A stretch of DNA of 64,000 bases from a virus (IMGVR_UViG_3300028805_003982), one strand, 5' to 3'; positions 9,876-26,463 are shown, counted from the first letter of the stretch. Notes: generated from the sequence alone by a model not told the origin. Program-made: numbers and translations.

Positions 9876-10605
9876 GAGGTTTTCCTTGCGGAAATTAGAT
9901 AAGTATAAATATAAGAACAACGTCTTCGCGGCTTGCGGAGTATGTCTTATCTTTGTCAGCACGGTCATGACCGTGTCGCCTAACGCGGCAGCAGTTGACG
10001 GATTTGAATACTACGATTCTTTCAGCAAGAGCCTGAAGCGTAAGATTATTGAAGTTCCTTCCATCATTTTAAACCGGCCTATGCCGGGTCCCGTAACGGA
10101 AGATATGGGCCTGGTCTTTGATGATTCTGCAATGAAAAGGTCGGTATCAGCCGATAATGGCAGAGAACTGATCAAACTCGAAAATGCTGAAGAACATGAG
10201 CAGGAACTTAAAAGTGTTCTTACTTCGGTTAAGCAGCAGATGCACCGGGCTAACAATCCTTACTGGTATATGGAAGAACCGGTAGTATATCCGGGTTCCG
10301 GACATCTTACGCGTACCAGGGGCGTCTATAAGGGTCCTTCCGGCAGAGAAACGTATTACAACCTGGAAATGCGCGAGGTCGTTGCCAGGATGCGTCGTAT
10401 GGGGTTTTCCGAAAAGGAATACCCGTACTGGGTAAGATCGGACGGGGTTAAGATGCTGGGCAGGTATGTTATGGTTGCAGCCAACCTGAAGATAAGGCCG
10501 AGGGGTTCAACACTGATGTGTTCTCTCGGTGAGGCGCTTGTATGCGATACCGGCGGATTTGTTAAGCATTATCCAAAAGGTCTTGATATCGCGGTTGATT
10601 GGTAA
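9865..10605 (+). CDS. membrane-anchored 3D-domain-like cell-wall protein
   Basis: N-terminal hydrophobic segment; ETYYNL, VMVAA, DTGG, DIAVDW motifs; exact start uncertain. Confidence 0.6.
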   Translation: MRSRRFSLRKLDKYKYKNNVFAACGVCLIFVSTVMTVSPNAAAVDGFEYYDSFSKSLKRKIIEVPSIILNRPMPGPVTEDMGLVFDDSAMKRSVSADNGRELIKLENAEEHEQELKSVLTSVKQQMHRANNPYWYMEEPVVYPGSGHLTRTRGVYKGPSGRETYYNLEMREVVARMRRMGFSEKEYPYWVRSDGVKMLGRYVMVAANLKIRPRGSTLMCSLGEALVCDTGGFVKHYPKGLDIAVDW

Positions 10606-11220: not shown

Positions 11221-11400
11221 CAACGACATTAAGTTAAGGGGTTGAGTAGCTCGACGAGGCGTAAGAGTTGCGGATAAGATGCTCCTAATAATAGCCGGAA
11301 TTGCTGTTTGAACCAGCCTTTGTAAGTTGCATCACTGATAAGCTCCGGCATCGCTGCAAGGTTCGAATCCTTGTCTTGACCCTTTAGCTTAATGACATTG
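11221..11400. mobile_element. 180-bp MITE with the same TIRs as 7907-9009, containing a tRNA-like RNA
   Basis: CAACGACATTAAGTTAAG / TTTAGCTTAATGACATTG ends; flanks ATACCAACGT vs ATACCCACAT (8/10 identical). Confidence 0.7.
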
Positions 11401-11428
11401 ATACCCACATAAAACAGGAGACAATCAG

Positions 11429-12938: not shown

Positions 12939-13039
12939 GGTTCAGACCTATTTGGTTTTGCACAGTTGTCAAACAAACGCGAGGTAAATCTTAAGTTCTT
13001 TAGGGTTCAGACCTGTTTGGTTTTGTAAAGTTGTCGAAC
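12939..13039 (+). CRISPR. mini array A: 2 repeats (GGTTCAGACCTRTTTGGTTTTGYAMAGTTGTCRAAC), 1 spacer of 29 nt
   Basis: Repeats at 12939-12974 and 13004-13039; first repeat 26/36 identical to array B repeat with the same GTTGTCAAAC end. Confidence 0.7.
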
Positions 13040-13461: not shown

Positions 13462-13533
13462 AAACCGTGTTATAATAATTAAGTAGGTAACCAACAAGGA
13501 TACCTACAAAAGAACCTTGATAATTATCATATA

Positions 13534-13894: not shown

Positions 13895-13969
13895 CGCAGG
13901 GATGTGCAGCGGATGCATAACGGGCCCATAACCCGAAGGCGGCAGGTTCGACTCCTGCTCCTGCAACCA
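13895..13969 (+). tRNA. tRNA-iMet(CAT)
   Basis: C1:A72 mismatch, GGG/CCC anticodon stem, CCA. Confidence 0.8.
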
Positions 13970-16433: not shown

Positions 16434-16500
16434 AATTTAGGTAACAAATCTAAATTTTTATGTTATAATGCAATTGATGAAATAGAAAAGGAGAAGATGC

Positions 16501-16578
16501 ATGAGACACTTTGTATCGCAGTCAAGTTCATTGCAGCGCTGTCAAACCGGCAGTTCTGTATTGCCGCGGTCACGGTGA
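16501..16578 (+). CDS. putative attenuator leader peptide 1 (MRHFVSQSSSLQRCQTGSSVLPRSR)
   Basis: TGTTATAAT promoter at 16461, AAGGAG RBS at 16488, 25 codons including 7 Ser and 3 Gln. Confidence 0.8.
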   Translation: MRHFVSQSSSLQRCQTGSSVLPRSR

Positions 16579-16618
16579 TCTTCTCCTTGTCTTCATTACT
16601 GCTTTCTTTTAATGAGTG

Positions 16619-16651
16619 AGGGTCGTCATTGTGATGACCCTTTCAGTTTTT
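16619..16651 (+). terminator. intrinsic terminator of attenuator 1
   Basis: AGGGTCGTCA-ttg-TGATGACCCT followed by a T-rich tract, directly before the first tRNA. Confidence 0.8.
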
Positions 16652-16655
16652 ATAC

Positions 16656-16741
16656 GCCGTGTGTCCGGGATGGTGAGGAGGGCGCCTTGAAAGCGTTTGA
16701 CCGGGAACGGTTTGCAGGTTCGAATCCTGTGCACGGCGCCA
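16656..16741 (+). tRNA. tRNA-Ser(TGA)
   Basis: Loop CTTGAAA, long variable arm, GCCA. Confidence 0.9.
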
Positions 16742-16745
16742 AAAC

Positions 16746-16838
16746 GATCATGTAAGCCTAACTGGTAAGGCACCCGCTTGGAAAGCGGGGAGTAACCGGG
16801 CAACCGGCGTGAAGGTTCAAGTCCTTCCGTGATCGCCA
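16746..16838 (+). tRNA. tRNA-Ser(GGA)
   Basis: Loop TTGGAAA, long variable arm, GCCA. Confidence 0.9.
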
Positions 16839-16842
16839 AAAC

Positions 16843-16931
16843 GGCAGATAAATCCGGACGGCTCCGGACCCTGTTTCGAAAACAGGTGGTACTTAACAAA
16901 GTATGAGGATCGTCACCTCTGTCTGTCGCCA
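16843..16931 (+). tRNA. tRNA-Ser(CGA)
   Basis: Loop TTCGAAA, long variable arm, atypical T-loop, GCCA. Confidence 0.8.
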
Positions 16932-16936
16932 AATAT

Positions 16937-17012
16937 GCCTTCATAGCTCAGCAGGCAGAGCGCATCCATGGTAAGGATGAGGTCGCCGGTTCGATCCCGG
17001 CTGGAGGCTCCA
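16937..17012 (+). tRNA. tRNA-Thr(GGT)
   Basis: Loop ATGGTAA, CCA. Confidence 0.9.
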
Positions 17013-17016
17013 ACAC

Positions 17017-17091
17017 AGGCCGGTGGTATAATCGGTAACACGTCGGACTCTGACTCCGAAGTTCAAGGTTCAAGTCCTTGTCGGCCTGCCA
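17017..17091 (+). tRNA. tRNA-Gln(CTG)
   Basis: Loop CTCTGAC, GCCA. Confidence 0.9.
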
Positions 17092-17096
17092 ATCAT

Positions 17097-17171
17097 GCCG
17101 AGTTAGTCTATCGGATAGAATCCCCGGCTACGAACCGGGGGAGACAGGTTCGACTCCTGTACTCGGTGCCA
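17097..17171 (+). tRNA. tRNA-Arg(ACG)
   Basis: Loop CTACGAA, CCA. Confidence 0.9.
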
Positions 17172-17175
17172 ATAC

Positions 17176-17249
17176 TGTCGTGTGGTGAAGCGGTATCACA
17201 TCTGACTTTGACTCAGAGATCGCAGGTTCGACCCCTGCCACGACAACCA
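17176..17249 (+). tRNA. tRNA-Gln(TTG)
   Basis: Loop CTTTGAC, CCA. Confidence 0.9.
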
Positions 17250-17253
17250 ATAT

Positions 17254-17343
17254 GCGGATGTGGTGTAACAGGTATCACAACGGATTGCTAATCCGTCCTA
17301 CCCATTAAGGGTAGTGCACGTTCGAGTCGTGTCGTCCGCGCCA
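17254..17343 (+). tRNA. tRNA-Ser(GCT)
   Basis: Loop TTGCTAA, long variable arm, GCCA. Confidence 0.9.
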
Positions 17344-17430
17344 TACAGGTCAGAGGGTTCGGGAGCGCCGGGCAACACCTCTGTACAAGGTGCTTTGGGA
17401 AGATTGCCCTTATCTCTGGCCTGTTAATGT

Positions 17431-17504
17431 GCATCCGTGGCAGCGGTCTGCCGTGCGGTCTGCAAAACCGCATAAAGTGAGTTCGACTCTCACCGGATGC
17501 TCCA
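17431..17504 (+). tRNA. tRNA-Cys(GCA)
   Basis: Loop CTGCAAA, U73-CCA. Confidence 0.85.
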
Positions 17505-17575
17505 TTTGTTAATAGTGTTCTATATGTGTTTTTTGCGGTCATAATCTACCTAATCGTATGAATAGGAGGCTGGTT

Positions 17576-18601
17576 ATGAGCGAGTTCAAGAAGATAGATC
17601 TGTTTAAGACTTTTCCTTGGTTAAATCAGGAAGGTACCAGAGATCTGAAGTATAACGATGTTTACACTCTGGACGATAAGGCATACGTTGCTTTTGAAAA
17701 ACGCGGCGATTCAACTAATGCTTTTATGCTTCTCGCGGGGGATAAGAACATTCTCGATGAGATCAATCCCGTTGATGGTGTGGGCGGATGGATCAGAGAC
17801 TGCATTGATGTTCAGGACGAGTTCGAGGATTACGTTGATGAATATGTGGAAGCCAGTGAAATGGATGACCCCAGACCTTATTGGGCAGACCGGGGGGCAC
17901 GTATCGCTGATTTCCTTGGCGACGAGGATTATAAAGAAATTGAAAAGGAGTTCTTTGAGGAGTGGTGCAGAAACCCCGAAAATGCCAGAATGTTTACGAT
18001 CCTGACTTTGGCAGTCGATCCTGACAACGTTAACATGTTCGGTAAGAACGCCGACGGTGAAGTGTGTTTGCTGGACCCCGACAGAAGATTTTATTCCGAG
18101 AACTGGGAAGAAGAGAATCTGACTGAAGCTGATCTGCCCAAGATGCAGAAGATAGTTGAAGAGGTTTTGAAAAAGGGCGTTAAGCAGGTATATCGCGACA
18201 CGGATTCTGAAATTAAAGAGGTCGATTTTACCAAAGGTGAATTAACCGCCTACAACGATTTTGCGATCATCGTTAGCCGTTTGTGTTCTCACGGAAGCAT
18301 GATGGGTTCTGTTATAAGGCCTTTGGAAGACGGCAGGTTTGAAGTAACCGGTTGCCGCGTAGTTAAAATGATAACCAGACAGGATTTCGATACGGATCTT
18401 GAATACGACAAGGCAGTTGATGAAATGATGAAGACTGCCGACGGAGTAACGGGGGAGTTCGTTACCGACGATCTTATCGCTTACGTTGAAGTAAAAGAGT
18501 TCCCCGATTCTTCTTATACGATAGATAAAGTAACCTTTTTTGGTAAGCCTTTGACGTTCCCCGATAATGACGTTGACGGCAACGGCAGGAATATGGACTA
18601 A
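17576..18601 (+). CDS. acidic hypothetical protein
   Basis: AGGAGG RBS; about 341 aa. Confidence 0.75.
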   Translation: MSEFKKIDLFKTFPWLNQEGTRDLKYNDVYTLDDKAYVAFEKRGDSTNAFMLLAGDKNILDEINPVDGVGGWIRDCIDVQDEFEDYVDEYVEASEMDDPRPYWADRGARIADFLGDEDYKEIEKEFFEEWCRNPENARMFTILTLAVDPDNVNMFGKNADGEVCLLDPDRRFYSENWEEENLTEADLPKMQKIVEEVLKKGVKQVYRDTDSEIKEVDFTKGELTAYNDFAIIVSRLCSHGSMMGSVIRPLEDGRFEVTGCRVVKMITRQDFDTDLEYDKAVDEMMKTADGVTGEFVTDDLIAYVEVKEFPDSSYTIDKVTFFGKPLTFPDNDVDGNGRNMD

Positions 18602-18614
18602 AGGAGATCAGACC

Positions 18615-19334
18615 ATGGACGATAAATACTTATACACAGGTAATTGGTACAAAACAGAAGACGGCAAGATCCTTCACATTGCTCAGGATGACTGCCCTCA
18701 AAACCCCCGTGAATGGGACGGGTGGCTTGGTAAGATTTTTTCCGTTTCCCGTTACGTGACAGGTGAAACCGATAAGGAAGGCCTTAAGTGCTGGGACGAT
18801 CTGTTACAGAAATACGGGGTAGAACAGAGCGGTACTGATATGCAGAAGGATTTTCCCGTTGACTGCAGAAATCTCATAGAAGCAGCAAAAGAGAAGGGAG
18901 ACGTTCTCCTTCCTATGTCCATATATGACCACAGCGGAATAACCCTTTATGTCGGTCTTCCCAGCGACCATTTTGACGGGCGTTGGGATTGTTCGTTTGT
19001 AGGTTTCATGATCGCGGACGGCAAGGATCTTGCTGAGCGTAAGCTTTCTTACGATGACGCTGTACAGATTCTTGAAGGCGAAGTAGCCATCTTGGACTGC
19101 TATTATACCGGTTCCGTTTACGGATATATTCTTTATGACGCGGAGTCCTTAGATGAGATCGATTCCTGCTGGGGCTTTTTCGGCAGCGAGATCAAGTCTT
19201 TTGAAGAGAGTGTTGGTCTGAAGATAACAGAAAATCTCGGCAGCGGCTATTCCGACGTCAACGAGTGTTTCGAGAGCAACAGGGAGTCCTTTGAGGAAGA
19301 AGCGAATCTTCGTAATATCAGGGGGTTTGAGTAA
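18615..19334 (+). CDS. phage-type hypothetical protein
   Basis: NPREWD, YDHSG, WDCS, DSCWGFFG motifs; AAGGAG RBS. Confidence 0.75.
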   Translation: MDDKYLYTGNWYKTEDGKILHIAQDDCPQNPREWDGWLGKIFSVSRYVTGETDKEGLKCWDDLLQKYGVEQSGTDMQKDFPVDCRNLIEAAKEKGDVLLPMSIYDHSGITLYVGLPSDHFDGRWDCSFVGFMIADGKDLAERKLSYDDAVQILEGEVAILDCYYTGSVYGYILYDAESLDEIDSCWGFFGSEIKSFEESVGLKITENLGSGYSDVNECFESNRESFEEEANLRNIRGFE

Positions 19335-19963
19335 TGGACGTGATCGACGGCAGATTTGAACCAGTTAAGCGTACTGCCGTGGACGGAAAGACCTGGTGGG
19401 TAGTATATGACAATAAAAGGCATGGTTACAGCTCTTACATTTGCCATGGTAAGTACGAAACCAGGAAACAGTGCGAGCAGGCGATAAAAGCGTCGTATAA
19501 GTATTTTTGCGGTGTCTCCGGGGAAGCCGGCAGATCTGTAGAAAGGAGAGAAAAAATGACAAACTATAATGACCTGAGAGACGGTCAAGAGTTCTATGCT
19601 AATGGTTACAAGAAAGGCTACGAGGACGCAAAGAAAGAGTTTGAAAGTAAGATTATTACAAAGGCTATCAGCGAAGAATTAGAAGCATTACCCAAAGAAA
19701 TTGATGGTGATAAGTTATTGATGCTATCAACGTTTGGGGCAGGAGTTAGATTTAATATCCTTGGTAAATTAAAAGAAAGTAAGAAAGATGACATGTCTCC
19801 TGATGTGATAAGCAAGATCTTAGCAGATTTCATATTGGATGACATTGAGAACGCCGATGAGGATTTTGTTAAAGAAAAGTTTGAAACCTTAGGGGTTACA
19901 CAGGAATTGTTAGATACGTTAGGCGTCGATTACCGCCTGGAAGGGGAAAAACCTAGTCTTTAA
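19334..19963 (+). CDS. hypothetical protein (possibly a fusion)
   Basis: Internal RBS and ATG near 19556; N-terminal domain resembles the C-terminus of 19979..20761. Confidence 0.6.
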   Translation: MDVIDGRFEPVKRTAVDGKTWWVVYDNKRHGYSSYICHGKYETRKQCEQAIKASYKYFCGVSGEAGRSVERREKMTNYNDLRDGQEFYANGYKKGYEDAKKEFESKIITKAISEELEALPKEIDGDKLLMLSTFGAGVRFNILGKLKESKKDDMSPDVISKILADFILDDIENADEDFVKEKFETLGVTQELLDTLGVDYRLEGEKPSL

Positions 19964-19978
19964 GAAGATGGGTGCGAT

Positions 19979-20761
19979 ATGGGGGATAATATGAGCAATC
20001 AAAAATATGTTGCGATACTCTGTAAGAGCAGTGAAAACGACGAAAGCATTGTCCTTGTTTCTTCTGATGAGCTGTTGGAGGTCATTCAAAATCCCGGCAG
20101 CTACAGATACAGTCCATCTAACGGGATAATGTACGGGGATGAAGAGATCAATAAATGCTTTAATCTTAATAAGATCAAAGATTTTGTCCTCATTGATTCT
20201 AACAGTCTTCCGGGCAAGTCCTCCGGATGGCCTAACGTAGTCCCGTCCTGGGCTAAGGTTTCCACTAAGATCAACAATCCTCAGTATATTAAGCTGGATT
20301 CTTTGGCTCCTTACGTCGAGATAGTTGCCATGGACCCGATAGAATTTGACATCAAGTCAATGGAATCGGTTAAGAAGGCAGCCAAACAGGTTATCGATAA
20401 CATTGCTGCTTTAGAGGATACTTGTTCGGAGATTTGTTATAAGTACGATCCTTACGACAACATAGACCCGAATGAATTAAGACGGATCTTATTCGATGAT
20501 ATTGTTCTTGTATCAAACCCCAGATTTGTTCCCATGCAGATAACATCCGAAGACGGATCTTTCTGGTGGCAGATCTACGATGCCAAGAACAGGGAGTTTA
20601 ATCATCTCGGGGGCACCAAGCACTATCCAACAAAAGAAAAATGTCAGGCGGCTATTGATTATTCTCAGGCACACGGGCTCCTGGCAACTGTTGATAAAGA
20701 CATATTTACCTGGGCTCCGAAACAGCCGGAAGAAGTAGATGAACCGGGACACGATCTGTGA
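19979..20761 (+). CDS. hypothetical protein
   Basis: 260-aa ORF. Confidence 0.7.
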   Translation: MGDNMSNQKYVAILCKSSENDESIVLVSSDELLEVIQNPGSYRYSPSNGIMYGDEEINKCFNLNKIKDFVLIDSNSLPGKSSGWPNVVPSWAKVSTKINNPQYIKLDSLAPYVEIVAMDPIEFDIKSMESVKKAAKQVIDNIAALEDTCSEICYKYDPYDNIDPNELRRILFDDIVLVSNPRFVPMQITSEDGSFWWQIYDAKNREFNHLGGTKHYPTKEKCQAAIDYSQAHGLLATVDKDIFTWAPKQPEEVDEPGHDL

Positions 20762-20789
20762 TCATAATAAAAGTAAAGGAGATAATATT

Positions 20790-21485
20790 ATGTACGTTTC
20801 TCAGAATAATCAGAAGTTATACTTAAATCATTGGGGATTTAATGCCTGCAGGCTTATGAGTATGTTGGCTACAGTCATCGAAGCTGCCGGCGGAGTGGTT
20901 GATTACAGATATCAGAAGACAGCGCTTGTCTGCGACAGGACCGTTTATGATAAAGCTCGTGAAAAGCTGGATATGTTAGATCACTTTAAGCAGGTTCTTG
21001 ATAAGAATCCTGAAATGAAAGATCAGATCCAGCCTAAGCTCGAAGTGCTTGAAAAGGAAGCTGAAGAGCTTGCAGGAACACCTGAAGTGTTTGTTCCTTG
21101 TGAGTTCCAGACGCATCTTAAATTCATGATCAACGACACTTTATATTATTATCAGGTTGACGACAATCCTTTTATGGAGTTCTATTATCAGAAGACTCCG
21201 ATCGTTAATGGAAGATACAGTAAAGATGCTTGTCTTATGGAAGCTTCAAAGCTCTGGTACGATGATTCCTTCTTAAAGGGCGGAGTTTCAGATGCAGATA
21301 TCAAGAAGGCAGCTGAAACGCTTGCGGGCGCATTGTTCAATGCACCCGAGTCTGAGATCATCCGCAGCAAGAAAACGATCAGCGTGCCCAACGCACATAA
21401 TAACGGGCATCACAAGGAAGTTGTTTTTGAGCCTGAACGTTTTTCCACGGAGCTGCCGCAGGGAAGAGAGACGCCGTCTTTGTAA
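20790..21485 (+). CDS. hypothetical protein
   Basis: AAGGAG RBS. Confidence 0.7.
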   Translation: MYVSQNNQKLYLNHWGFNACRLMSMLATVIEAAGGVVDYRYQKTALVCDRTVYDKAREKLDMLDHFKQVLDKNPEMKDQIQPKLEVLEKEAEELAGTPEVFVPCEFQTHLKFMINDTLYYYQVDDNPFMEFYYQKTPIVNGRYSKDACLMEASKLWYDDSFLKGGVSDADIKKAAETLAGALFNAPESEIIRSKKTISVPNAHNNGHHKEVVFEPERFSTELPQGRETPSL

Positions 21486-21575
21486 GGCAAAAAACACCTG
21501 TTGAAAAATAAAATTTAGAAAATTACGATTTTTCTGTTGTATTTTTAAAATGTGGTGTTATAATAGTAAGTGATG

Positions 21576-21790
21576 AAGGAAGTGCCTGTCCGACATCTGA
21601 TTACAAAAGACCTAAGGGCTGAAACGGGTCAGGTCCAATCGCCCGGTTAGGTGTGTGAGGGAAGTGAGGTTGGTCGCCGCAAGGTGTAAAGTCCTCCGCA
21701 CTCAAAGTGATGATGAAACATGCATCCGCCTAATCTTTAACCTGAAGGGTCCCCAAGATTGTAATCAGTTGTGAGATAAGGGCTTCCTCT
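21576..21790 (+). ncRNA. rod-shaped structured RNA, 6S-like
   Basis: Promoter TTGTAT-N16-TATAAT at 21537-21564; nested helices GAGGAAG/CTTCCTC, CTGATTACAA/TTGTAATCAG, GGTTAGGTG/CGCCTAATC around a central bubble. Confidence 0.55.
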
Positions 21791-21820
21791 TTTTATACTT
21801 AAACGAAAGGATAAAAGACT

Positions 21821-21979
21821 ATGGTTACTGTTGTTATGAAGAGACATAACGATCTGATGCCCAAGGCGTATGAGAATGATACGCTCGGTTTCGCATGGTC
21901 TTTAGTTCCGGCTATATTCGTACGTACATTGGGTACAGGCAAAGAATATATCGGAAGCAAGGGGCGATTAAGATGTTAA
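21821..21979 (+). CDS. putative attenuator leader peptide 2 (52 aa, codon-diverse)
   Basis: GAAAGGA RBS; MVTVVMKRHNDLMPKAYENDTLGFAWSLVPAIFVRTLGTGKEYIGSKGRLRC; 38 distinct codons. Confidence 0.75.
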   Translation: MVTVVMKRHNDLMPKAYENDTLGFAWSLVPAIFVRTLGTGKEYIGSKGRLRC

Positions 21980-22020
21980 TCACAGCTTTTGTTTAAGCTC
22001 AAACAGAATAGAGAAGCATC

Positions 22021-22060
22021 AAGGATCGCCCGAAGAGAATAAAATCGGACGATCCTTTTT
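22021..22060 (+). terminator. intrinsic terminator of attenuator 2
   Basis: AAGGATCG..CCGA / TCGG..CGATCCTT hairpin plus T tract upstream of the tRNA array. Confidence 0.8.
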
Positions 22061-22103
22061 AATTCTCGTGAACATTGACAACTGAATATTTTCTTTTAAA
22101 CAT

Positions 22104-22177
22104 TCCCCTGTCATTTAAAGGTAGGATGGCTGACTGTTAATCAGTTTATGGAAGTTCGATTCTTCCCGGGGGAGCCA
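22104..22177 (+). tRNA. tRNA-Asn(GTT)
   Basis: Loop CTGTTAA, GCCA. Confidence 0.85.
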
Positions 22178-22181
22178 ATAT

Positions 22182-22256
22182 ATCCGCATGGTGTAATCGG
22201 TAGCACGGCAGTCTCCAAAACTGCTTGTCGGGGTTCGAGTCCTCGTGCGGGTGCCA
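22182..22256 (+). tRNA. tRNA-Trp(CCA)
   Basis: Loop CTCCAAA, GCCA. Confidence 0.9.
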
Positions 22257-22352
22257 TATGAAAAGTAAAAAGGAAAAAGTCAAGGATACATTGTTGACCA
22301 AGGTGAAGTCCGGAATGATCTGAGGAAGAGAATGTAACACCGATAAGTATTC

Positions 22353-22421
22353 TGAGCAATGGTGTAAGCGGAAGCACGCAGAGTGATGGCCGGAAGTGCA
22401 GGTTCAAGTCCCGCTTGCTCA
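22353..22421 (+). pseudogene. tRNA-like element lacking a proper anticodon stem and CCA
   Basis: TGAGCAA/TTGCTCA acceptor, D-arm and GTTCAAGTC T-loop present. Confidence 0.55.
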
Positions 22422-22435
22422 CTTTTCATTCTTAT

Positions 22436-22510
22436 GCCCCTGTGGTGTAACCGGTAACATGACTGACTCTGACTCAGTTATTCAAGGTTCAAATCCTTGC
22501 GGGGGTGCCA
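22436..22510 (+). tRNA. tRNA-Gln(CTG)
   Basis: Loop CTCTGAC, GCCA. Confidence 0.9.
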
Positions 22511-22596
22511 TTAGAAGGTTAGTAAAGAAAACAGGCACTCTTTACGGATCTTCTGCGGGGATGATGAAAAACAGGCACTTTCTTCATCCCTTACAT

Positions 22597-22683
22597 GGGT
22601 CGGTAAACCGTAACTGGTAGCGGGACGGACTGTAAATCCGTTGTCGAGAGACTCTGTAGGTTCAAGTCCTACCCGGCCCACCA
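22597..22683 (+). tRNA. tRNA-Tyr(GTA)
   Basis: Loop CTGTAAA, long variable arm. Confidence 0.9.
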
Positions 22684-22692
22684 TTTTAAAAC

Positions 22693-22768
22693 GGATCGGT
22701 AGCTCAGTCGGTAGAGCGAGGGACTGAAAATCCCTGCGTCACAGGTTCGATTCCTGTCCCTTCCACCA
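22693..22768 (+). tRNA. tRNA-Phe(GAA)
   Basis: Loop CTGAAAA, CCA. Confidence 0.9.
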
Positions 22769-22771
22769 GAT

Positions 22772-22846
22772 GTTCTCCTAGTTCAACGGCAGAACAACGG
22801 ACTCTTAATCCGTGAGATCGGGGTTCAAATCCCCGGGGGAGCACCA
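22772..22846 (+). tRNA. tRNA-Lys(CTT)
   Basis: Loop CTCTTAA, CCA. Confidence 0.9.
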
Positions 22847-22914
22847 TAACCATTAAAGAGAAAGGAGAAGACACATGTTGCACAAACAGAAGTTAAACGT
22901 AGGTGTATTGACAA

Positions 22915-22989
22915 GCGTCTATAGTTTAACGGTAGAACAGCGGACTTTTACTCCGTAAGATGAGGGTTCGAATCCCTCTGGGCGTACCA
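22915..22989 (+). tRNA. tRNA-Lys(TTT)
   Basis: Loop CTTTTAC, CCA. Confidence 0.85.
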
Positions 22990-23062
22990 TATATGGGTCT
23001 GTAGCTCAACCAGGAGAGTTATCTCTAAAGAGTTGCAAAACTCCCGCAGCGCCGTTTTATAA

Positions 23063-23140
23063 CACGCGTTGGAGAAGAGGTCTAACTCGCCGGCCTTTCA
23101 AGTCGGTATTCGCTGGGTTCAAATCCCGCACGCGTGGCCA
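23063..23140 (+). tRNA. tRNA-Glu(TTC)
   Basis: Loop CTTTCAA, GCCA. Confidence 0.85.
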
Positions 23141-23266
23141 AAGAAACTCTAAGTGAAACGAGTAGGTCGTGTCTTGACACTAAGGCGATAACGATGCATC
23201 TGACTAAACTGAAGTGACGAAAGAAGTAACTGAAAAGGAGTCGCTCTCCCTGAGTTTCTGATCTAT

Positions 23267-23340
23267 GGCCCTTTCTTCTATCGGCAGGAAAGCAGGTTCT
23301 CAGCCTGACAAGCAGGGTTCAACTCCCTGAAGGGTCACCA
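23267..23340 (+). tRNA. tRNA-Glu(CTC)
   Basis: Loop TTCTCAG, CCA. Confidence 0.85.
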
Positions 23341-23436
23341 ATGGGCAGCGGTTGTCCGGCGGCATAGAAAGGGTTCAAGTCCTGCACGCGCGGGTTCGAC
23401 TCCCGGCGTACATGGTGTCGAAATGCCGCATTTCAT

Positions 23437-23513
23437 ATCCTCGTGGCGGAACGGGCAGACGCAGACGGTTCAGAGCCGTAAAGTTACAGGTTCAAATCCT
23501 GTCGGGGATACCA
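23437..23513 (+). tRNA. tRNA-Leu(CAG), short variable arm
   Basis: Loop TTCAGAG, ACCA. Confidence 0.8.
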
Positions 23514-23517
23514 AAAT

Positions 23518-23595
23518 GGCCTCGTAGCAGAATCTGGCATATGCACTGCACTAAGGATGCAGGGTTTGCGGGTTCGAATCCCGCCGGGGCTACCA
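23518..23595 (+). tRNA. tRNA-Leu(AAG), short variable arm
   Basis: Loop CTAAGGA, ACCA. Confidence 0.8.
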
Positions 23596-23599
23596 ATAT

Positions 23600-23673
23600 C
23601 CGGGTGTAGCGTAATGGCAGCGTTCGTGCCTTGGGAGCATGAGGTGTGGGTTCAACTCCCGCCACTCGGACCA
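23600..23673 (+). tRNA. tRNA-Pro(TGG)
   Basis: Loop CTTGGGA, ACCA. Confidence 0.9.
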
Positions 23674-23678
23674 TTTAT

Positions 23679-23752
23679 CGTAGCTTCTTCTAATGGTAGG
23701 AAGACCGTCTGATACGCGGTTAATGTCTGTTCGATTCAGTCAGCTACGACCA
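23679..23752 (+). tRNA. tRNA-Ile(GAT)
   Basis: Loop CTGATAC, ACCA. Confidence 0.8.
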
Positions 23753-23829
23753 TGGGGCATAGCTCAACAGGTCAGAGCTCCGGCCTTATAAGCCGGCGGT
23801 TCAGGGTTCGAGTCCCTGTGCCCCTACCA
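23753..23829 (+). tRNA. tRNA-Ile(TAT)
   Basis: Loop CTTATAA, ACCA. Confidence 0.85.
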
Positions 23830-23832
23830 AAT

Positions 23833-23909
23833 GTCTGATTGGCGCAACTGGCAGACGCGGCTGACTCAAAATCAGTTTCTTCAGGGTTCGAGTCCCTGAT
23901 CAGACACCA
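23833..23909 (+). tRNA. tRNA-Leu(CAA), short variable arm
   Basis: Loop CTCAAAA, ACCA. Confidence 0.85.
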
Positions 23910-24074
23910 GTCGGGAGTACACGCGAGAATCACAAGCGGGCCGACGGTACATCGGCAGCCTGAACAGGATTAGGTGCACATGAGTCCTTAAGGGCAACGG
24001 CGGGGTAGTGTCCGTCCTCCCACACCAACGAGTTCTTTGCCTTTTTCTCTCCAAAAGAAATCGGTGACCGGTAT

Positions 24075-24151
24075 GCTTCCGTAGCTCCAATTGGCAGAGC
24101 GGGTGCCTTGTAATCACCAGGTTGTGAGTTCGAGTCTCACCGGAAGCTCCA
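24075..24151 (+). tRNA. tRNA-Thr(TGT)
   Basis: Loop CTTGTAA, CCA. Confidence 0.9.
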
Positions 24152-24155
24152 ACAT

Positions 24156-24230
24156 ACTCCTGTCGTTCAACTGAAAGGACAGCACTCTTCTAAAGTGTCG
24201 ATCAAGGTTTGAGTCCTTGCAGGAGTACCA
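24156..24230 (+). tRNA. tRNA-Arg(TCT)
   Basis: Loop CTTCTAA, CCA. Confidence 0.85.
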
Positions 24231-24355
24231 TTAAAAAACACGATAGCTTGGTAATTTGCTGAAGTTAGCTGCAAGGATAGGATATCGGGTAATCAGCAAA
24301 ACCTTAGTCCGAAAGTAGCAGAGAGGGTTTTTGAAGCCGTGTTTCCCTCATTTAT

Positions 24356-24432
24356 GGGGCCATAGCTCAGTTTGGGAGAGCGCCTGCCCTGCAAGCAGGA
24401 GGTCGCGGGTTCGATGCCCGCTGGTTCCACCA
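24356..24432 (+). tRNA. tRNA-Ala(TGC)
   Basis: GGGGCCA start with G3:U70, loop CCTGCAA. Confidence 0.9.
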
Positions 24433-24578
24433 TTGCAAATTAAGCTGCCGGAATGAACCATTCCTATATCAGCGGTCCTGCTGATGAAACTAAACGATTG
24501 AAAGAACAACCAGGCAGCAGGAATTTCTGCAAAGCCTTTATTTACAAGGCTTTAGCAAAAACCGGGAAGGGAGGGACT

Positions 24579-24668
24579 GTATATAAAAGTATTATTTTGT
24601 ATTGCTTTGTATTGTGATGTACCGATTAAATAATACGTATTTATTTGTATGTCTTTGTATTGCTGTAT
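24579..24668. repeat. 10-bp-phased GTAT repeats
   Basis: GTAY at 24579, 24589, 24599, 24609, 24619 and again at 24637, 24647, 24657. Confidence 0.65.
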
Positions 24669-24720
24669 AGTGTCAAACACAGTTATATATTTACAAAACA
24701 ATACGCGATCTTTGATAAAT

Positions 24721-24797
24721 GCCCGTATAGCTCAGCTGGGATGAGCATCTGCCTTACAAGCAGGAGGCCCAAGGTTCGAACCCTTGTGCGGGCACCA
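24721..24797 (+). tRNA. tRNA-Val(TAC)
   Basis: Loop CTTACAA, CCA. Confidence 0.9.
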
Positions 24798-24802
24798 AAT
24801 AT

Positions 24803-24877
24803 GCAGGTATTGTATAACGGCTATTACGCTACCTTGCCAAGGTAGAGATGAGGGTTCGATTCCCTCTACTTGCTCCA
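24803..24877 (+). tRNA. tRNA-Gly(GCC)
   Basis: Loop TTGCCAA, TCCA. Confidence 0.9.
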
Positions 24878-24882
24878 AATAT

Positions 24883-24969
24883 GGGTGAGTATCCCGTAAC
24901 AGGCAGCGGACCAGACTGTAAATCTGGTGTCATTCGACTCAGGGGGTTCGAGTCCCTCGTCACCCACCA
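24883..24969 (+). tRNA. tRNA-Tyr(GTA)
   Basis: Loop CTGTAAA, long variable arm. Confidence 0.9.
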
Positions 24970-24976
24970 ATCATAC

Positions 24977-25051
24977 GGCCCTATGGTATAACGGCTATTA
25001 TGCCGGACTGTCTATCCGGAGACCGGGGTTCAACTCCCCGTGGGGTCGCCA
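24977..25051 (+). tRNA. tRNA-Asp(GTC)
   Basis: Loop CTGTCTA, GCCA. Confidence 0.9.
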
Positions 25052-25056
25052 ATTAT

Positions 25057-25131
25057 GTGCCATTGGTGTAATCGGCAGCACCTTAGTCTTCCAAACTAAC
25101 GGTACGGGTTCAAGTCCCGTATGGCACTCCA
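25057..25131 (+). tRNA. tRNA-Gly(TCC)
   Basis: Loop CTTCCAA, TCCA. Confidence 0.9.
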
Positions 25132-25135
25132 GTAT

Positions 25136-25210
25136 CGCGGCGTATTTTAATGGTAGAATGCGATCCTCATAAGATCGTCGGTACGGGTTCAAGTCCCGTC
25201 GCCGCCACCA
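25136..25210 (+). tRNA. tRNA-Met(CAT) (Met or Ile2 identity unresolved)
   Basis: Loop CTCATAA, ACCA. Confidence 0.8.
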
Positions 25211-25214
25211 AAAT

Positions 25215-25289
25215 GTGGTTATTAGTGTAACGGCAGCACGGCAGATTGTGGCTCTGCAAGCATAGGTTCGACCCCTGTATTTCCACCCA
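25215..25289 (+). tRNA. tRNA-His(GTG)
   Basis: G-1:C73, loop TTGTGGC. Confidence 0.85.
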
Positions 25290-25292
25290 AAT

Positions 25293-25366
25293 GCTTCTAT
25301 CGTTCAAGGGAAGGACAGCACTCTTCGAAAGTGCTTATCGGGGTTCGAATCCCTGTGGAAGCACCA
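25293..25366 (+). tRNA. tRNA-Arg(TCG)
   Basis: Loop CTTCGAA, CCA. Confidence 0.85.
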
Positions 25367-25378
25367 ATTCCTTAACAT

Positions 25379-25454
25379 GCTTCCGTAGCTCAGCCGGCAG
25401 AGCGGCGGTATCGTAAACCGCAGGTCGTGAGTTCGATCCTCGCCGGAAGCTCCA
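25379..25454 (+). tRNA. tRNA-Thr(CGT)
   Basis: Loop ATCGTAA, CCA. Confidence 0.9.
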
Positions 25455-25634
25455 ATTATTTTTGCTTATACGGCGGTCTACGCGGCACCTTTTGGATTAT
25501 CCGCGGTTATAATTAAATCATAATGATGCCCTCCGAAGTCTTCGGACTGACGGTTAAAGACGAGCGTTTTCGAACGTGAGCAAAGTAGGTGATAAGTCAT
25601 CCAACTGCGAGTCGCAAAAGGCAGATTTATAAAT

Positions 25635-25710
25635 GCTCCTGTAGCTCAGTCGGTAGAGCACGTGACTTTTAATCACGGGGCCAAGAGTTCGAACCTCTTC
25701 AGGGGCACCA
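25635..25710 (+). tRNA. tRNA-Lys(TTT)
   Basis: Loop CTTTTAA, CCA. Confidence 0.9.
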
Positions 25711-25714
25711 TTAT

Positions 25715-25791
25715 CTCCCGGTACCAGAACTGGCATATGGACCGGACTTAAAATCCGGGGTTTGCGGGTTCGACCCCCGCGCGGGAGACCA
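25715..25791 (+). tRNA. tRNA-Leu(TAA), short variable arm
   Basis: Loop CTTAAAA, ACCA. Confidence 0.8.
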
Positions 25792-25971: not shown

Positions 25972-26463
25972 ATGTTCAGATCGGCAAGCGGTCAGGAAAT
26001 GACTGTGGACGAGATAATCAATAAGATCGCCCGTTACATAGCATCTGACCCTGAAGCATCTTACGAGTTTACGGTGGGTACGGACAGCCAGAACCACGAC
26101 AGGACAAAGATGGTCGAGGTTATCGCGGTACACCGGAAGGGAAGGGGCGGAATATATTTCTATAACGTCGAGTATGTCCGCCGCATTAACAGTTTAAAGC
26201 AGAAGATCAATGAAGAAACGGCAAGAAGCCTTAACATCGCAAACGGGCTTATCGACAGGCTTGAATTAAGGCTTTATGAAGATAACATTGATCTGACGAC
26301 TTTAGATGTTTCTTTCCAGATCCACTGCGATATAGGGCCTTGCGGCAAGACGTCCATGCTCATCCAGGAGATCGTAGGATGGGTAACAAGCTGCGGCTAT
26401 ATCTGTCTTATCAAGCCTGACAGTTATGCAGCAAGCGGCATTGCCGATAAGCACAGTAAATGA
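25972..26463 (+). CDS. RNase H-like YkuK (DUF458) family protein
   Basis: VGTDSQ, IHCDIG, KPDSYAASGIADKHSK. Confidence 0.85.
   Translation: MFRSASGQEMTVDEIINKIARYIASDPEASYEFTVGTDSQNHDRTKMVEVIAVHRKGRGGIYFYNVEYVRRINSLKQKINEETARSLNIANGLIDRLELRLYEDNIDLTTLDVSFQIHCDIGPCGKTSMLIQEIVGWVTSCGYICLIKPDSYAASGIADKHSK

Follow-up and report, generated by a model that had tools for sequence, protein, structure and literature searches.

The window analysed here is a 64,000-nucleotide stretch of DNA (IMGVR_UViG_3300028805_003982) from a mobile element of a rumen-type Clostridium that carries 43 tRNAs within 14 kb, in a region adjoining genes for integrases, a TnpB-like transposase (PHROG transposase family), TraX and PcfJ. 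The element falls within the L-array definition of PMC8421152, some 20 to 43 clustered supernumerary tRNA genes on mobile or patchy DNA. Two of its tRNA blocks, operon 1 and array 2, each lie behind a short ORF (leader 1 and leader 2, respectively), and the features are as follows.

16441–16469, plus strand: operon 1 promoter (GTAACA, 17 nt, TATAAT, extended TG; 10 of 12 matches, with the TG, in a consensus scan)
16488–16493, plus strand: leader 1 RBS, AAGGAG, 7 nt 5' of the ATG at 16501
16497–16619, plus strand: 40-codon hydrophobic ORF overlapping leader 1, with its stop exactly at the terminator stem
16501–16578, plus strand: leader 1, a 25-codon ORF with 7 Ser, 3 Gln, 4 Arg, 1 Cys and 1 Thr
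16573–16590, plus strand: leader 1 switch segment, pyrimidine-rich and overlapping the stop codon, with two alternative pairings
16618–16651, plus strand: intrinsic terminator 1 (11-bp stem, 3-nt loop, U-rich tail)
16656–17504, plus strand: operon 1 (Ser-TGA, Ser-GGA, Ser-CGA, Thr-GGT, Gln-CTG, Arg-ACG, Gln-TTG, Ser-GCT, an 87-nt cloverleaf-like element, Cys-GCA)
21537–21564, plus strand: promoter of the array-2 leader (TTGTAT, 16 nt, TATAAT, extended TG), its position conserved in relatives
21572–21797, plus strand: 5' element T0, with a 26-nt box at the transcript start, a closing stem and then a U run
21806–21811, plus strand: leader 2 RBS, AAAGGA (GAAAGGA is conserved among relatives)
21821–21979, plus strand: leader 2, a 52-codon ORF of a conserved sORF family ending (G)RLRC-stop
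21962–21969, plus strand: antiterminator 5' strand (GGGCGATT), within the last six codons of leader 2, pairing with 22024–22031
22023–22060, plus strand: intrinsic terminator 2 (arms 22023–22032 and 22046–22055, then a U run)
22075–22080, plus strand: CTTGACAAC box between terminator 2 and the first tRNA, nearly invariant in the relatives' alignment
22104–25791, plus strand: array 2, with 29 tRNAs and 27 anticodons; its internal gaps carry promoter-like sequences
25972–26463, plus strand: RNaseH-like gene (PF04308, DUF458), which closes array 2

A preliminary description had assigned all four Ser tRNAs, two Gln tRNAs and the Cys tRNA to operon 1, and ARAGORN bears this out, with the fourth Ser tRNA (Ser-CGA, 16847–16931) called only at the relaxed threshold. 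Its statement that the big array has no Ser or Cys tRNA holds on the plus strand at standard and relaxed thresholds alike; array 2 does contain a third Gln tRNA (CTG, 22436). A recount also reproduced the codon numbers given there for the leaders: 7 Ser and 3 Gln in the 25 codons of leader 1, and 2 Ser, no Gln and one terminal Cys in the 52 codons of leader 2.

Each unit has a single good promoter, and it precedes the terminator, which in turn lies ahead of the first tRNA, by 5 nt for terminator 1 and by about 45 nt for terminator 2. A consensus scan found no second good promoter between the operon 1 promoter and its tRNAs. The CTTGACAAC motif was considered as a sigma-70 -35 box for the first array-2 tRNA and rejected, because its spacing to the tRNA is too short. 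The 26-nt box of T0 is invariant across all relatives, the window's copy of the element contains an insert of ~150 nt, and T0 has no Rfam match. Searches for a T-box returned nothing between positions 13000 and 29000 at E values up to 1 or, at the gathering score, across the window, and no other Rfam family matched here.

The antiterminator pairing of leader 2 (21962–21969 with 22024–22031) has an energy of -21 kcal/mol, placing it in the top 1.5–4% of random segments. The full-length, ribosome-free leader 2 RNA is predicted to adopt the antiterminator fold, and a ribosome positioned at the stop codon is predicted to give the terminator fold. No anti-antiterminator is seen in the fold of leader 2, where untranslated RNA adopts the antiterminator; absent translation thus predicts read-through. 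The codons of leader 2 sample 26 of the 27 array-2 anticodons (null 19.3, sd 2.1, P about 1e-4), a coverage reached by 0 of 449 null windows matched for codon diversity. The amino acid content is not unusual, with 19 of 20 amino acids in 51 codons (P 0.18).

Relatives were located with the RNaseH-like gene as an anchor. Homologous arrays in rumen Clostridia hold 4–35 tRNAs of variable content, and all 18 further loci having enough sequence show a leader ORF of 49–58 codons with the RLRC-stop end; the distance from this ORF to the first tRNA is 109–124 nt in 17 of them and 227 nt in one. RBS, ATG and ORF length are kept in 19/19 loci although the sequences diverge. The antiterminator helix is 95% paired over 17 distinct sequences; two of its positions show double changes from G-C to A-U, and the equivalent of terminator 2 is likewise 95% paired among relatives. 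Amino-acid changes at the conserved C-terminal codons are accompanied by compensating substitutions in the terminator arm, which indicates selection on RNA pairing.

The codons of these leaders also vary with the tRNA cargo. Over 33 distinct pairings of leader and array in rumen Clostridia, the leaders cover 401 of 423 anticodons of their own arrays (95%), compared with a permuted mean of 354 (84%) and a maximum of 377 in 20,000 permutations. Pro codons occur in 14/15 leaders whose array has tRNA-Pro and in 0/18 without it; the corresponding values are 4/4 vs 3/29 for Trp and 15/16 vs 6/17 for His. Synonymous codons are biased to the anticodons of the leader's own array (z 3.9), and in short arrays the leaders are rebuilt around their small amino-acid set. 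Ser codons follow Ser tRNAs across the family, of which the window's leader 2 carries the minimum of Ser codons. The P values for the family overstate independence, since the counts include related sequences.

In leader 1, the operon-1 tRNAs decode 13 of the 24 codons, where the background rate is 14.9% (P 9e-6), and 9/9 of these tRNAs are sampled (P 3e-4). The joint event has P 1e-6 vs coding sequence and a frequency of ~1e-4 among all stop-free six-frame windows, and leader 1 is the sole upstream sORF showing such a match to operon 1. Its RBS spacing of 7 nt lies within the 6–11 nt spanned by the window's own GGAG genes. No homologue of leader 1 was found in any relative examined, and a relative 97–98% identical has the Ser-GCT and Cys tRNAs without it. 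The switch segment pairs with the RBS in a helix of 11–12 bp (-18.4 kcal/mol, far above chance); its pairing with the 5' arm of terminator 1 comprises 10 contiguous bp, including 4 G-U, at about -11 kcal/mol, a value matched on energy by 37–63% of random segments (P 0.03 as a contiguous helix). The equilibrium probability of terminator 1 is 0.99 whatever the ribosome position. The RBS:anti-RBS helix could serve as an anti-antiterminator (1:2 pairing), and it might also re-form behind a ribosome stalled at codons 6–10, which counts against the switch. The shared architecture of the preliminary description therefore stands for promoter, RBS, ORF, terminator and tRNAs in both units and for the antiterminator of leader 2, but the antiterminator energy of leader 1 is at chance level.

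From these sequence features, we propose that each sORF encodes the leader peptide of a ribosome-mediated attenuator controlling transcription of the tRNA operon behind it, a reading to which we give a probability of about 0.7. Polymerase would start at the strong promoter, and a ribosome would load onto the leader ORF. A ribosome arriving promptly at the stop codon would mask the segment complementary to the 5' arm of the terminator, so that the terminator forms and the tRNAs are not transcribed. Were the tRNA for a leader codon scarce or uncharged, the ribosome would lag, the segment would pair with the terminator arm, and polymerase would read into the tRNA genes. Because the leader codons are those decoded by the downstream tRNAs, each operon would be tuned to the shortage of its own cargo, with leader 1 as a narrow sensor of Ser/Gln/Arg/Cys/Thr and leader 2 as a broad sensor of nearly every array-2 anticodon. 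The data show the layout of both units, the codon statistics, the conserved ORF, RBS and terminator of the leader 2 family with their covarying antiterminator, and the way leader codons vary with cargo among relatives; stall-driven read-through, the leader 1 switch as a whole and any tie to tRNA-cleaving defence are what we infer. Weighing against the proposal are the absence of leader 1 homologues, its chance-level antiterminator energy and unvarying terminator probability, the 40-codon ORF that overlaps it, the missing anti-antiterminator of leader 2 and the promoter-like gaps inside array 2.

The preliminary description held further that the two leaders divide the genetic code as the two operons do. 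Each leader does match its own operon, and codons of the operon-1 type make up 13/24 in leader 1 vs 6/51 in leader 2 (Fisher P 1.7e-4). However, leader 2 is not significantly depleted of them (6 observed vs 7.7 expected, P 0.32), so its low Ser, Gln and Cys content does not qualify as a signal; it has Ser (TCT, AGC), Cys, Thr (ACT) and Arg (CGT, CGA) codons at ordinary frequency. Leader 1, for its part, has 11 codons decoded only by array-2 tRNAs. A Ser shortage should therefore act on leader 2 as well, giving cross-induction that is graded rather than separate. The idea of two separately inducible modules thus survives as two distinct transcription units, each with its own promoter, leader and terminator, but the codon overlap leads us to expect graded induction. 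Simple control of supply, for a tRNA set that was acquired, accounts for the data as well as rescue from different classes of translational attack does.

The proposed circuit resembles the enterobacterial attenuators (thrL and ilvL, also trpL, hisL, leuL and pheL) in its promoter, short codon-rich ORF, terminator and ribosome-masked alternative pairing, and, as in the thrL/ilvL type, several amino acids are represented per leader. It differs in that the regulated genes are tRNAs instead of biosynthetic enzymes, so the loop would act on the sensed molecule itself; that leader 2 uses mostly single codons over about 26 anticodons, not runs; that leader 2 is without a clear anti-antiterminator and the 1:2 element of leader 1 is an RBS:anti-RBS helix; and that the host is a Gram-positive-type Clostridium. 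The E. coli pheST attenuator, with its pheM leader, is a case of leader-peptide attenuation of a translation-apparatus gene. There, as proposed here, sensing of charged tRNA by a leader peptide controls a component of the decoding machinery, although the gene controlled is a synthetase, a single amino acid is sensed and there is no tRNA cargo. T-box riboswitches share the choice between terminator and antiterminator set by tRNA status, and occur in Firmicutes; unlike the present leaders, they bind uncharged tRNA directly without translation, and their targets are synthetase and amino-acid genes. The trn L-array of Anabaena sp. PCC 7120 is, like ours, a long, horizontally spread, supernumerary tRNA array; it is silent until translation is impaired and is induced by translational stress via the repressor TrcR (PMC8421152, PMC10272220). 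That repressor binds DNA at direct repeats in the promoter, over the -10 box, whereas here the promoters precede a leader and terminator. No leader peptide or terminator is described for the Anabaena array, and 'attenuat', 'terminator' and 'leader' have 0 occurrences in the text.

The survey proposed in the preliminary description, of regions upstream of tRNA arrays for a codon-matched sORF plus terminator, was positive in two unrelated lineages, the rumen Clostridia and phiCbK-like phages. The phiCbK-like phages of Caulobacter and Brevundimonas likewise have two arrays, each behind a promoter, sORF and terminator. Each of these leaders is built from the amino acids of its own array, and an ORF segment that mimics the 3' arm of the terminator changes in step with the terminator arm. 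In CcrSC the leader is annotated merely as hypothetical gp144. These leaders differ from ours in their unrelated sequence, the GC-rich proteobacterial host and an antiterminator segment that lies mid-ORF instead of at the end, and the two-leader design arose independently of the Clostridium element. In four other phage arrays, a codon-matched leader was absent at P<0.01. We found no published account of codon-matched leader attenuation for tRNA genes.

One rival explanation is that only leader 2 senses and that the leader 1 frame is a by-product: 16476–16651 would hold a small gene or RNA complete in itself, such as the 40-codon hydrophobic peptide (16497–16619) with a sequestered RBS in type I toxin style, and leakage through the terminator would supply operon 1. 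The absence of relatives and the weak antiterminator of leader 1 agree with this, as do the RBS locked within the 11–12 bp helix and the 40-codon frame, which is open, hydrophobic and ends exactly at the terminator stem; given the 25-codon peptide, the longer frame is open and equally hydrophobic in 0.7% of recodings. Against it, when the 40-codon peptide is held fixed, only 4e-4 of recodings leave the +1 frame open with a match to all nine tRNAs, and much of the hydrophobic stretch comes from the pyrimidine-rich anti-RBS/pre-terminator region. A well-supported codon-matched leader also lies 5 kb off in the same element. As a type I toxin the frame was rejected, despite its hydrophobicity and sequestered RBS, since its ATG is 3 nt from the GGAG (6–11 nt in real genes), a consensus scan found no antisense promoter, and the peptide has no homologue among 1.8 billion representatives and no family match. 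We consider the by-product explanation unlikely.

Quite improbable, in our judgment, is a reading in which the sORFs make ordinary small proteins, or their translation serves only to stabilize the mRNA, with the terminators acting as constitutive partial stops, tRNA levels set by T0, an Anabaena-like repressor or internal promoters, and the codon-cargo correlation reflecting shared descent. In its favour, the invariant box and terminator-like stem of T0 are more strongly conserved than the leader, the leader-2 peptide is partly conserved, array 2 contains promoter-like sequences, and the loci are related, with non-independent counts. Against these stand the compensating changes between C-terminal codons and terminator arm, the sharp Pro, Trp and His contrasts, the short-array leaders rebuilt around few amino acids, the synonymous-codon bias and the same design in unrelated Caulobacter phages. 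The least probable proposal, at very long odds, is that the leaders monitor translation as a whole (ribosome availability or stalling antibiotics), like erm/cat leaders, and not individual tRNAs, with the codon match secondary. It would accommodate the 19 amino acids of leader 2, the predicted read-through of ribosome-free RNA and the induction of the Anabaena L-array by any translational stress (PMC8421152), but 19 amino acids in 51 codons is ordinary where the own-anticodon coverage is not, leader 1 is strongly skewed to five amino acids, and leader codons track cargo among relatives.

Returning to codon-matched attenuation, we suggest tentatively, at slightly below even odds, that tRNA arrays of mobile elements and large phages may commonly be self-adjusting supply circuits, in which the leader spells out the cargo one codon at a time and is rewritten with each gain, loss or relocation of a tRNA. 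In the present element, an ancestral single array would have split, the Ser, Gln, Arg, Thr and Cys tRNAs would have gained a new leader of their own, and the original one would have lost most of its Ser and all of its Gln codons. This may have yielded two differently tuned channels of tRNA supply, with T0 as a possible second RNA-level input.

The window belongs to a large mobile element. Among its genes are those for NrdD, a TnpB-type transposase, TraX, PcfJ, two integrases, thymidylate synthase and a sigma factor; no phage structural genes were seen within it, and its TraX protein is also present on a 234,910-bp contig. On the + strand are 43 tRNA genes, and two blocks of them, operon 1 and array 2, each lie behind a short leader ORF and a terminator.

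Features of the two tRNA units (window coordinates, + strand)
16501-16578, +, leader 1 ORF, 25 codons
16618-16651, +, terminator 1
16656-17504, +, operon 1 tRNAs: Ser-TGA, Ser-GGA, Thr-GGT, Gln-CTG, Arg-ACG, Gln-TTG, Ser-GCT, Cys-GCA
16847-16931, +, atypical Ser-CGA in operon 1, found by ARAGORN at relaxed threshold only and unscored by Rfam
21572-21797, +, T0, the 5' element of the leader-2 transcript
21821-21979, +, leader 2 ORF, 52 codons
22023-22060, +, terminator 2
22104-25791, +, array 2: 29 tRNAs with 27 anticodons, no Ser or Cys tRNA, a third Gln-CTG included
25972-26463, +, DUF458 gene (PF04308, RNaseH-like) closing the array; also at ~10001-10489 in the rumen Clostridia genome loci L012-L030

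Judged from sequence, leader 2 is very likely (probability roughly 0.85-0.9) a ribosome-mediated attenuator that senses the decoding speed of its cargo's own codons, and leader 1 is probably another. We infer, as we do the kinetics and the biological trigger, that ribosome stalling on leader codons would drive read-through into the tRNAs; the proposal draws on the observed anatomy, codon statistics, conservation and covariation of the leaders. Leader 2 samples 26 of the 27 array-2 anticodons, against a null of 19.3 (SD 2.1; P ~1e-4), a coverage not attained in any of the 449 null windows that had ≥37 distinct codons; its high amino-acid diversity was rejected as a signal (P = 0.18). The last leader-2 codons (21962-21969) pair with 22024-22031 in the 5' arm of terminator 2 at -21 kcal/mol, an energy that ranks within the top 1.5-4% for random segments. 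When untranslated, the full-length RNA adopts the antiterminator fold, and the terminator forms once a ribosome is placed at the stop codon. A second candidate antiterminator helix (GATGTT with AGCATC) was dropped because it is not conserved in relatives.

Relatives were gathered with the DUF458 gene as anchor, which yielded 19 rumen Clostridia loci (from rumen Ruminococcaceae, Saccharofermentans and other Clostridia). A tRNA array lies directly upstream of DUF458 in 18 of the 19, the nineteenth being a 2-kb contig without tRNAs, so that this gene closes the array in the window and in 18 relatives, an association that may reflect a functional link to tRNA processing. In IMG/VR the same anchor returned one unrelated low-GC locus with two tRNAs, and TraX homologues, all <50% identical, were uninformative for finding relatives. 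All 18 arrays are preceded by a 49-58-codon ORF that ends in RLRC-stop and stands behind a conserved GAAAGGA; the first tRNA is Asn-GTT, as in array 2, in 17 (Phe-GAA in L021), and the distance from ORF to first tRNA is 109-124 nt in 17 and 227 nt in L021. The attenuator alignment (A3) is 95% paired for the terminator and likewise 95% paired for the antiterminator helix, in which one position is occupied by nine G-C, seven A-U and one G-U pair, and another by 11 G-C and two A-U pairs. The terminator helix is often mismatched at the former position. The antiterminator changes alter the encoded amino acid, and therefore selection acts on the RNA pairing.

Conservation extends to the 5' end of the leader transcript, where a 26-nt box (21572-21597) is identical in 19 of 19 genome loci; used as a query, it returned 66 metagenome loci and none from IMG/VR, and an RBS and sORF follow 81 of 86 boxes. 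An 8-bp closing stem (GGAAGTGC with GCACTTC), whose 5' strand is provided by the box, precedes a U run; the element also has an inner hairpin that covaries and an unpaired, invariant CUGUCCGAC. T0, which has no Rfam match and carries a ~150-nt insert in the window and in the metagenome-set locus L047, has the look of a factor-binding site or a regulated terminator. Between terminator 2 and tRNA-Asn (22075-22080; A3 columns ~141-150) stands a nearly invariant CTTGACAAC box, 16-23 nt from the tRNA 5' end, which for that reason cannot be a standard -35 box for tRNA-Asn; spacing likewise ruled out the TTGACA found there as part of a standard array promoter. This conserved box and the invariant T0 may add further control. 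Within array 2, a 288-nt gap (24433-24720) with several hairpins and, within an AT-rich stretch, four TTTGTATTG-like repeats may be an internal promoter or operator, and extended -10 boxes of the (T)GTTATAAT type occur at 25505-25513 (before Lys-TTT and Leu-TAA) and, outside the array, at 13467-13478, ~415 nt before a Met-Ala-Val cluster; neither box was accompanied by a matched leader ORF. Given the promoter-like sequences in the two array-2 gaps, not all 29 tRNAs need depend on leader 2. No convincing internal leaders were found at the window tRNA clusters at 13895, 26503 and 27749, in the gaps of array 2 or in those of the relatives' arrays. A conserved ORF-like stretch beginning M(C/F)PK(K/E)IYK recurs in the latter (L012 8180-8263, L014 9641-9724, L022 9714-9839).

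Across the family, leader codons follow the tRNA cargo. The 18 distinct leaders cover 245 of 257 anticodons of their own arrays, compared with 225 when leaders are permuted; for 33 distinct complete leader/array pairs, 401 of 423 own-array anticodons are covered, whereas 20,000 permutations averaged 354 and never exceeded 377, although P values for such codon-cargo matches overstate independence because the sequences are related. The cognate codon is present with versus without the tRNA in 14/15 versus 0/18 pairs for Pro-TGG, 4/4 versus 3/29 for Trp, 15/16 versus 6/17 for His, 17/17 versus 9/16 for Ile-GAT and 10/10 versus 13/23 for Ser-GCT, and leaders of arrays with four to six tRNAs are visibly rebuilt around those amino acids. 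Synonymous choice also favours array-readable codons (268/400 versus 233 expected, z = 3.9). The direction and sharpness of these contrasts are hard to explain by descent alone. A tRNA-Ile with the anticodon TAT, unusual in bacteria, lies at 23753-23829 in the window and occurs in 26 of the 33 distinct complete arrays; 25 of these 26 have an ATA codon in the leader.

Leader 1, with seven Ser and three Gln codons, also matches its own cargo. Thirteen of its 24 post-initiator codons are cognate to the nine operon-1 tRNAs, compared with 14.9% in the long ORFs of the window (P = 9e-6), and each of the nine finds a cognate codon (P = 3e-4; joint probability ~1e-6). Under a harsher null of all 49,723 stop-free 24-codon windows in six frames, there were 13 joint matches, seven of them leader 1 itself (frequency ~1e-4). 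Among 959 sORFs compared, it is the sole one of <30 codons that covers all nine tRNAs, and the remaining sORFs upstream of operon 1 show no match to them. Leader-1 DNA has no match among the 19 genome loci or 66 metagenome loci, IMG/VR searches with the neighbouring proteins and a leader-1 25-mer found no relatives, and BLAST of the region against phage and plasmid records returned single tRNAs only.

The true product could instead be a 40-codon ORF (16497-16619) that overlaps leader 1 in the -1 frame, is hydrophobic and has its stop at the foot of terminator 1. When the 25-codon peptide was held fixed in recoding simulations, a -1 frame that was open and equally hydrophobic arose in only 0.7%; the hydrophobicity of one frame and the Ser content of the other are linked, since Ser TCN codons read as hydrophobic NTC codons in the -1 frame. 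The converse simulation, with the 40-codon peptide fixed, gave an open +1 frame matching all nine tRNAs at the lower frequency of 4e-4. Moreover, the ATG of the longer ORF lies 3 nt from GGAG, whereas spacing in the window's genes is 6-11 nt and that of the ATG at 16501 is 7 nt, and the longer product matches nothing in Pfam or NCBIfam and lacks a credible HMMER hit. We favour the 25-codon frame as the more likely translated one.

The strongest structural feature of this 25-codon leader is a perfect 11-12-bp helix (-18.4 kcal/mol) between its RBS (16487-16498) and a segment just past the stop (16577-16588); no equally good RBS pairing for leader 1 was found elsewhere in the window. A pyrimidine-rich segment spanning the stop codon (16573-16582) forms 10 contiguous pairs, four of them G-U, with the 5' arm of terminator 1, a pairing that is rare as a contiguous helix (P = 0.03), yet whose energy of about -11 kcal/mol is equalled by 37-63% of random segments. 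The modelled energies (-18, -11 to -12 and -20 kcal/mol) resemble a 1:2, 2:3, 3:4 attenuator scheme, except that the RBS takes the place of element 1 and would stay uncovered while a ribosome stalls at codons 6-10. Terminator 1 had an equilibrium probability of 0.99 at every ribosome position modelled, and antitermination may require that a second ribosome occupy the RBS, for which there would be room after the first reaches about codon 11. Because terminator 1 ends 5 nt 5' of the first tRNA with no intervening promoter, operon 1 can be expressed only by read-through.

The preliminary description had the two leaders dividing the code as the two tRNA units do. Its tRNA and codon counts are right, including two Ser, no Gln and one terminal Cys codon in leader 2 (21821-21979), and those two Ser codons are the lowest count in the family; the division itself is partial. 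The scarcity of operon-1-type codons in leader 2 is not significant (6 versus 7.7 expected, P = 0.32), leader 2 covers 5 of 9 operon-1 tRNAs against 5.4 expected, and 11 array-2 codons are also present in leader 1. In relatives, Ser-TGA, Ser-GCT, Arg-ACG, Gln-TTG and Cys-GCA stand at the 3' end of a single array, or just past DUF458 in L012. L047, the closest relative of the window's 5' leader RNA (97% over the window-specific insert), keeps its 35 tRNAs, four of them for Ser, in one undivided array whose leader has five Ser and two Gln codons, and leaders average 6.5 Ser codons where the array has Ser tRNAs versus 4.2 where it lacks them (one-sided P = 0.014). These undivided arrays and the family Ser pattern imply that the split arrangement is derived, with leader 2 apparently having lost part of its Ser and Gln codons. 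As this loss is incomplete and leader 1 holds array-2 codons, the responses of the two units should overlap.

The module boundary is also fluid. The Logan contig L001, found via homologues of a 347-aa neighbour (the other match was a 1.8-kb contig without tRNAs), is 97-98% identical to window 17250-22058, with L001 1-415 aligned against window 17250. In it, Ser-GCT, a cloverleaf-like element and Cys directly follow an unrelated nucleotidyltransferase gene, and neither leader 1 nor any of the first seven tRNAs is present, which places a recombination joint at the start of Ser-GCT. That 87-nt element (17344-17430, between Ser-GCT and Cys), with a 12-bp closing stem and the loop CUGUACA, is identical in L001 and missing from other relatives, and it was not called a tRNA by ARAGORN or Rfam.

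The same codon-cargo statistic was run on public phage records. In Caulobacter phage CcrSC (L003), the annotated gp144 (39 codons, 3897-4016) precedes tRNAs for Pro, Thr, Lys, Leu (three), His, Ala, Ser (three) and Trp. Of its codons, 22 of 38 belong to the cargo set, and coverage of the anticodons is complete (12 of 12; null 6.2, P < 3e-4). Another sORF (11322-11420), with a perfect terminator, stands before the tRNAs for Val, Ile, Val, Gln, Asn, Arg and Phe, and 16 of its 31 codons belong to their set (P = 0.003). CcrColossus, CcrPW and Brevundimonas phage Kikimora have homologous leaders; that of Kikimora has gained Tyr codons, its array being headed by a Tyr tRNA. In each phage an ORF segment repeats the 3' arm of the terminator, both changing in step. 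Two leaders that split the code like their arrays are therefore a recurrent design. The codon-anticodon correlation expected upstream of other arrays thus holds in the rumen Clostridia family and in phiCbK-like phages, but phages DSS3P8, Aeromonas ST4, a Microbacterium phage and RcXuper had no leader at P < 0.01, so the design is not universal. Roseobacter phage DSS3P8 carries a DUF458 gene amid its tRNA genes (L004 13781-14278). A second mini-ORF, 4 to 23 codons long and provided with a good RBS, lies between leader terminator and tRNAs in the phiCbK-like phages (L003 11500-11575; L008 and L009 past the leader-B terminator; L010 ~19345-19380).

Leader-peptide attenuation is well established for genes of amino-acid biosynthesis and for synthetase genes, and the device proposed here would be multivalent like the thr and ilv leaders; a T-box identity was ruled out by the lack of an Rfam T-box match. 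No paper connecting leader peptides with tRNA operons or arrays emerged from full-text literature searches. Here attenuation apparently acts on tRNA genes themselves, with the leader tracking its tRNA cargo through evolution. Candidate triggers are a tRNA-cleaving host defence, general translational stress and the demands of the element's own genes. The Anabaena L-array offers a functional parallel in its stress induction, although it is controlled by the repressor TrcR (PMC8421152, PMC10272220) rather than by leader-peptide attenuation. Homologous arrays occur in genome assemblies labelled as named rumen strains, not MAGs, such as Ruminococcaceae bacterium YRB3002, AB4001 and YAD3003 (loci L012, L014 and L017), and the same design occurs in Caulobacter phages, so the idea is directly testable. 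If true, it would explain how horizontally acquired tRNA arrays stay silent yet useful, a question raised for L-arrays in PMC8421152, and how phages and mobile elements could replace just the failing tRNAs, and these leaders would constitute a natural programmable sensor of the decoding speed of many codons simultaneously.
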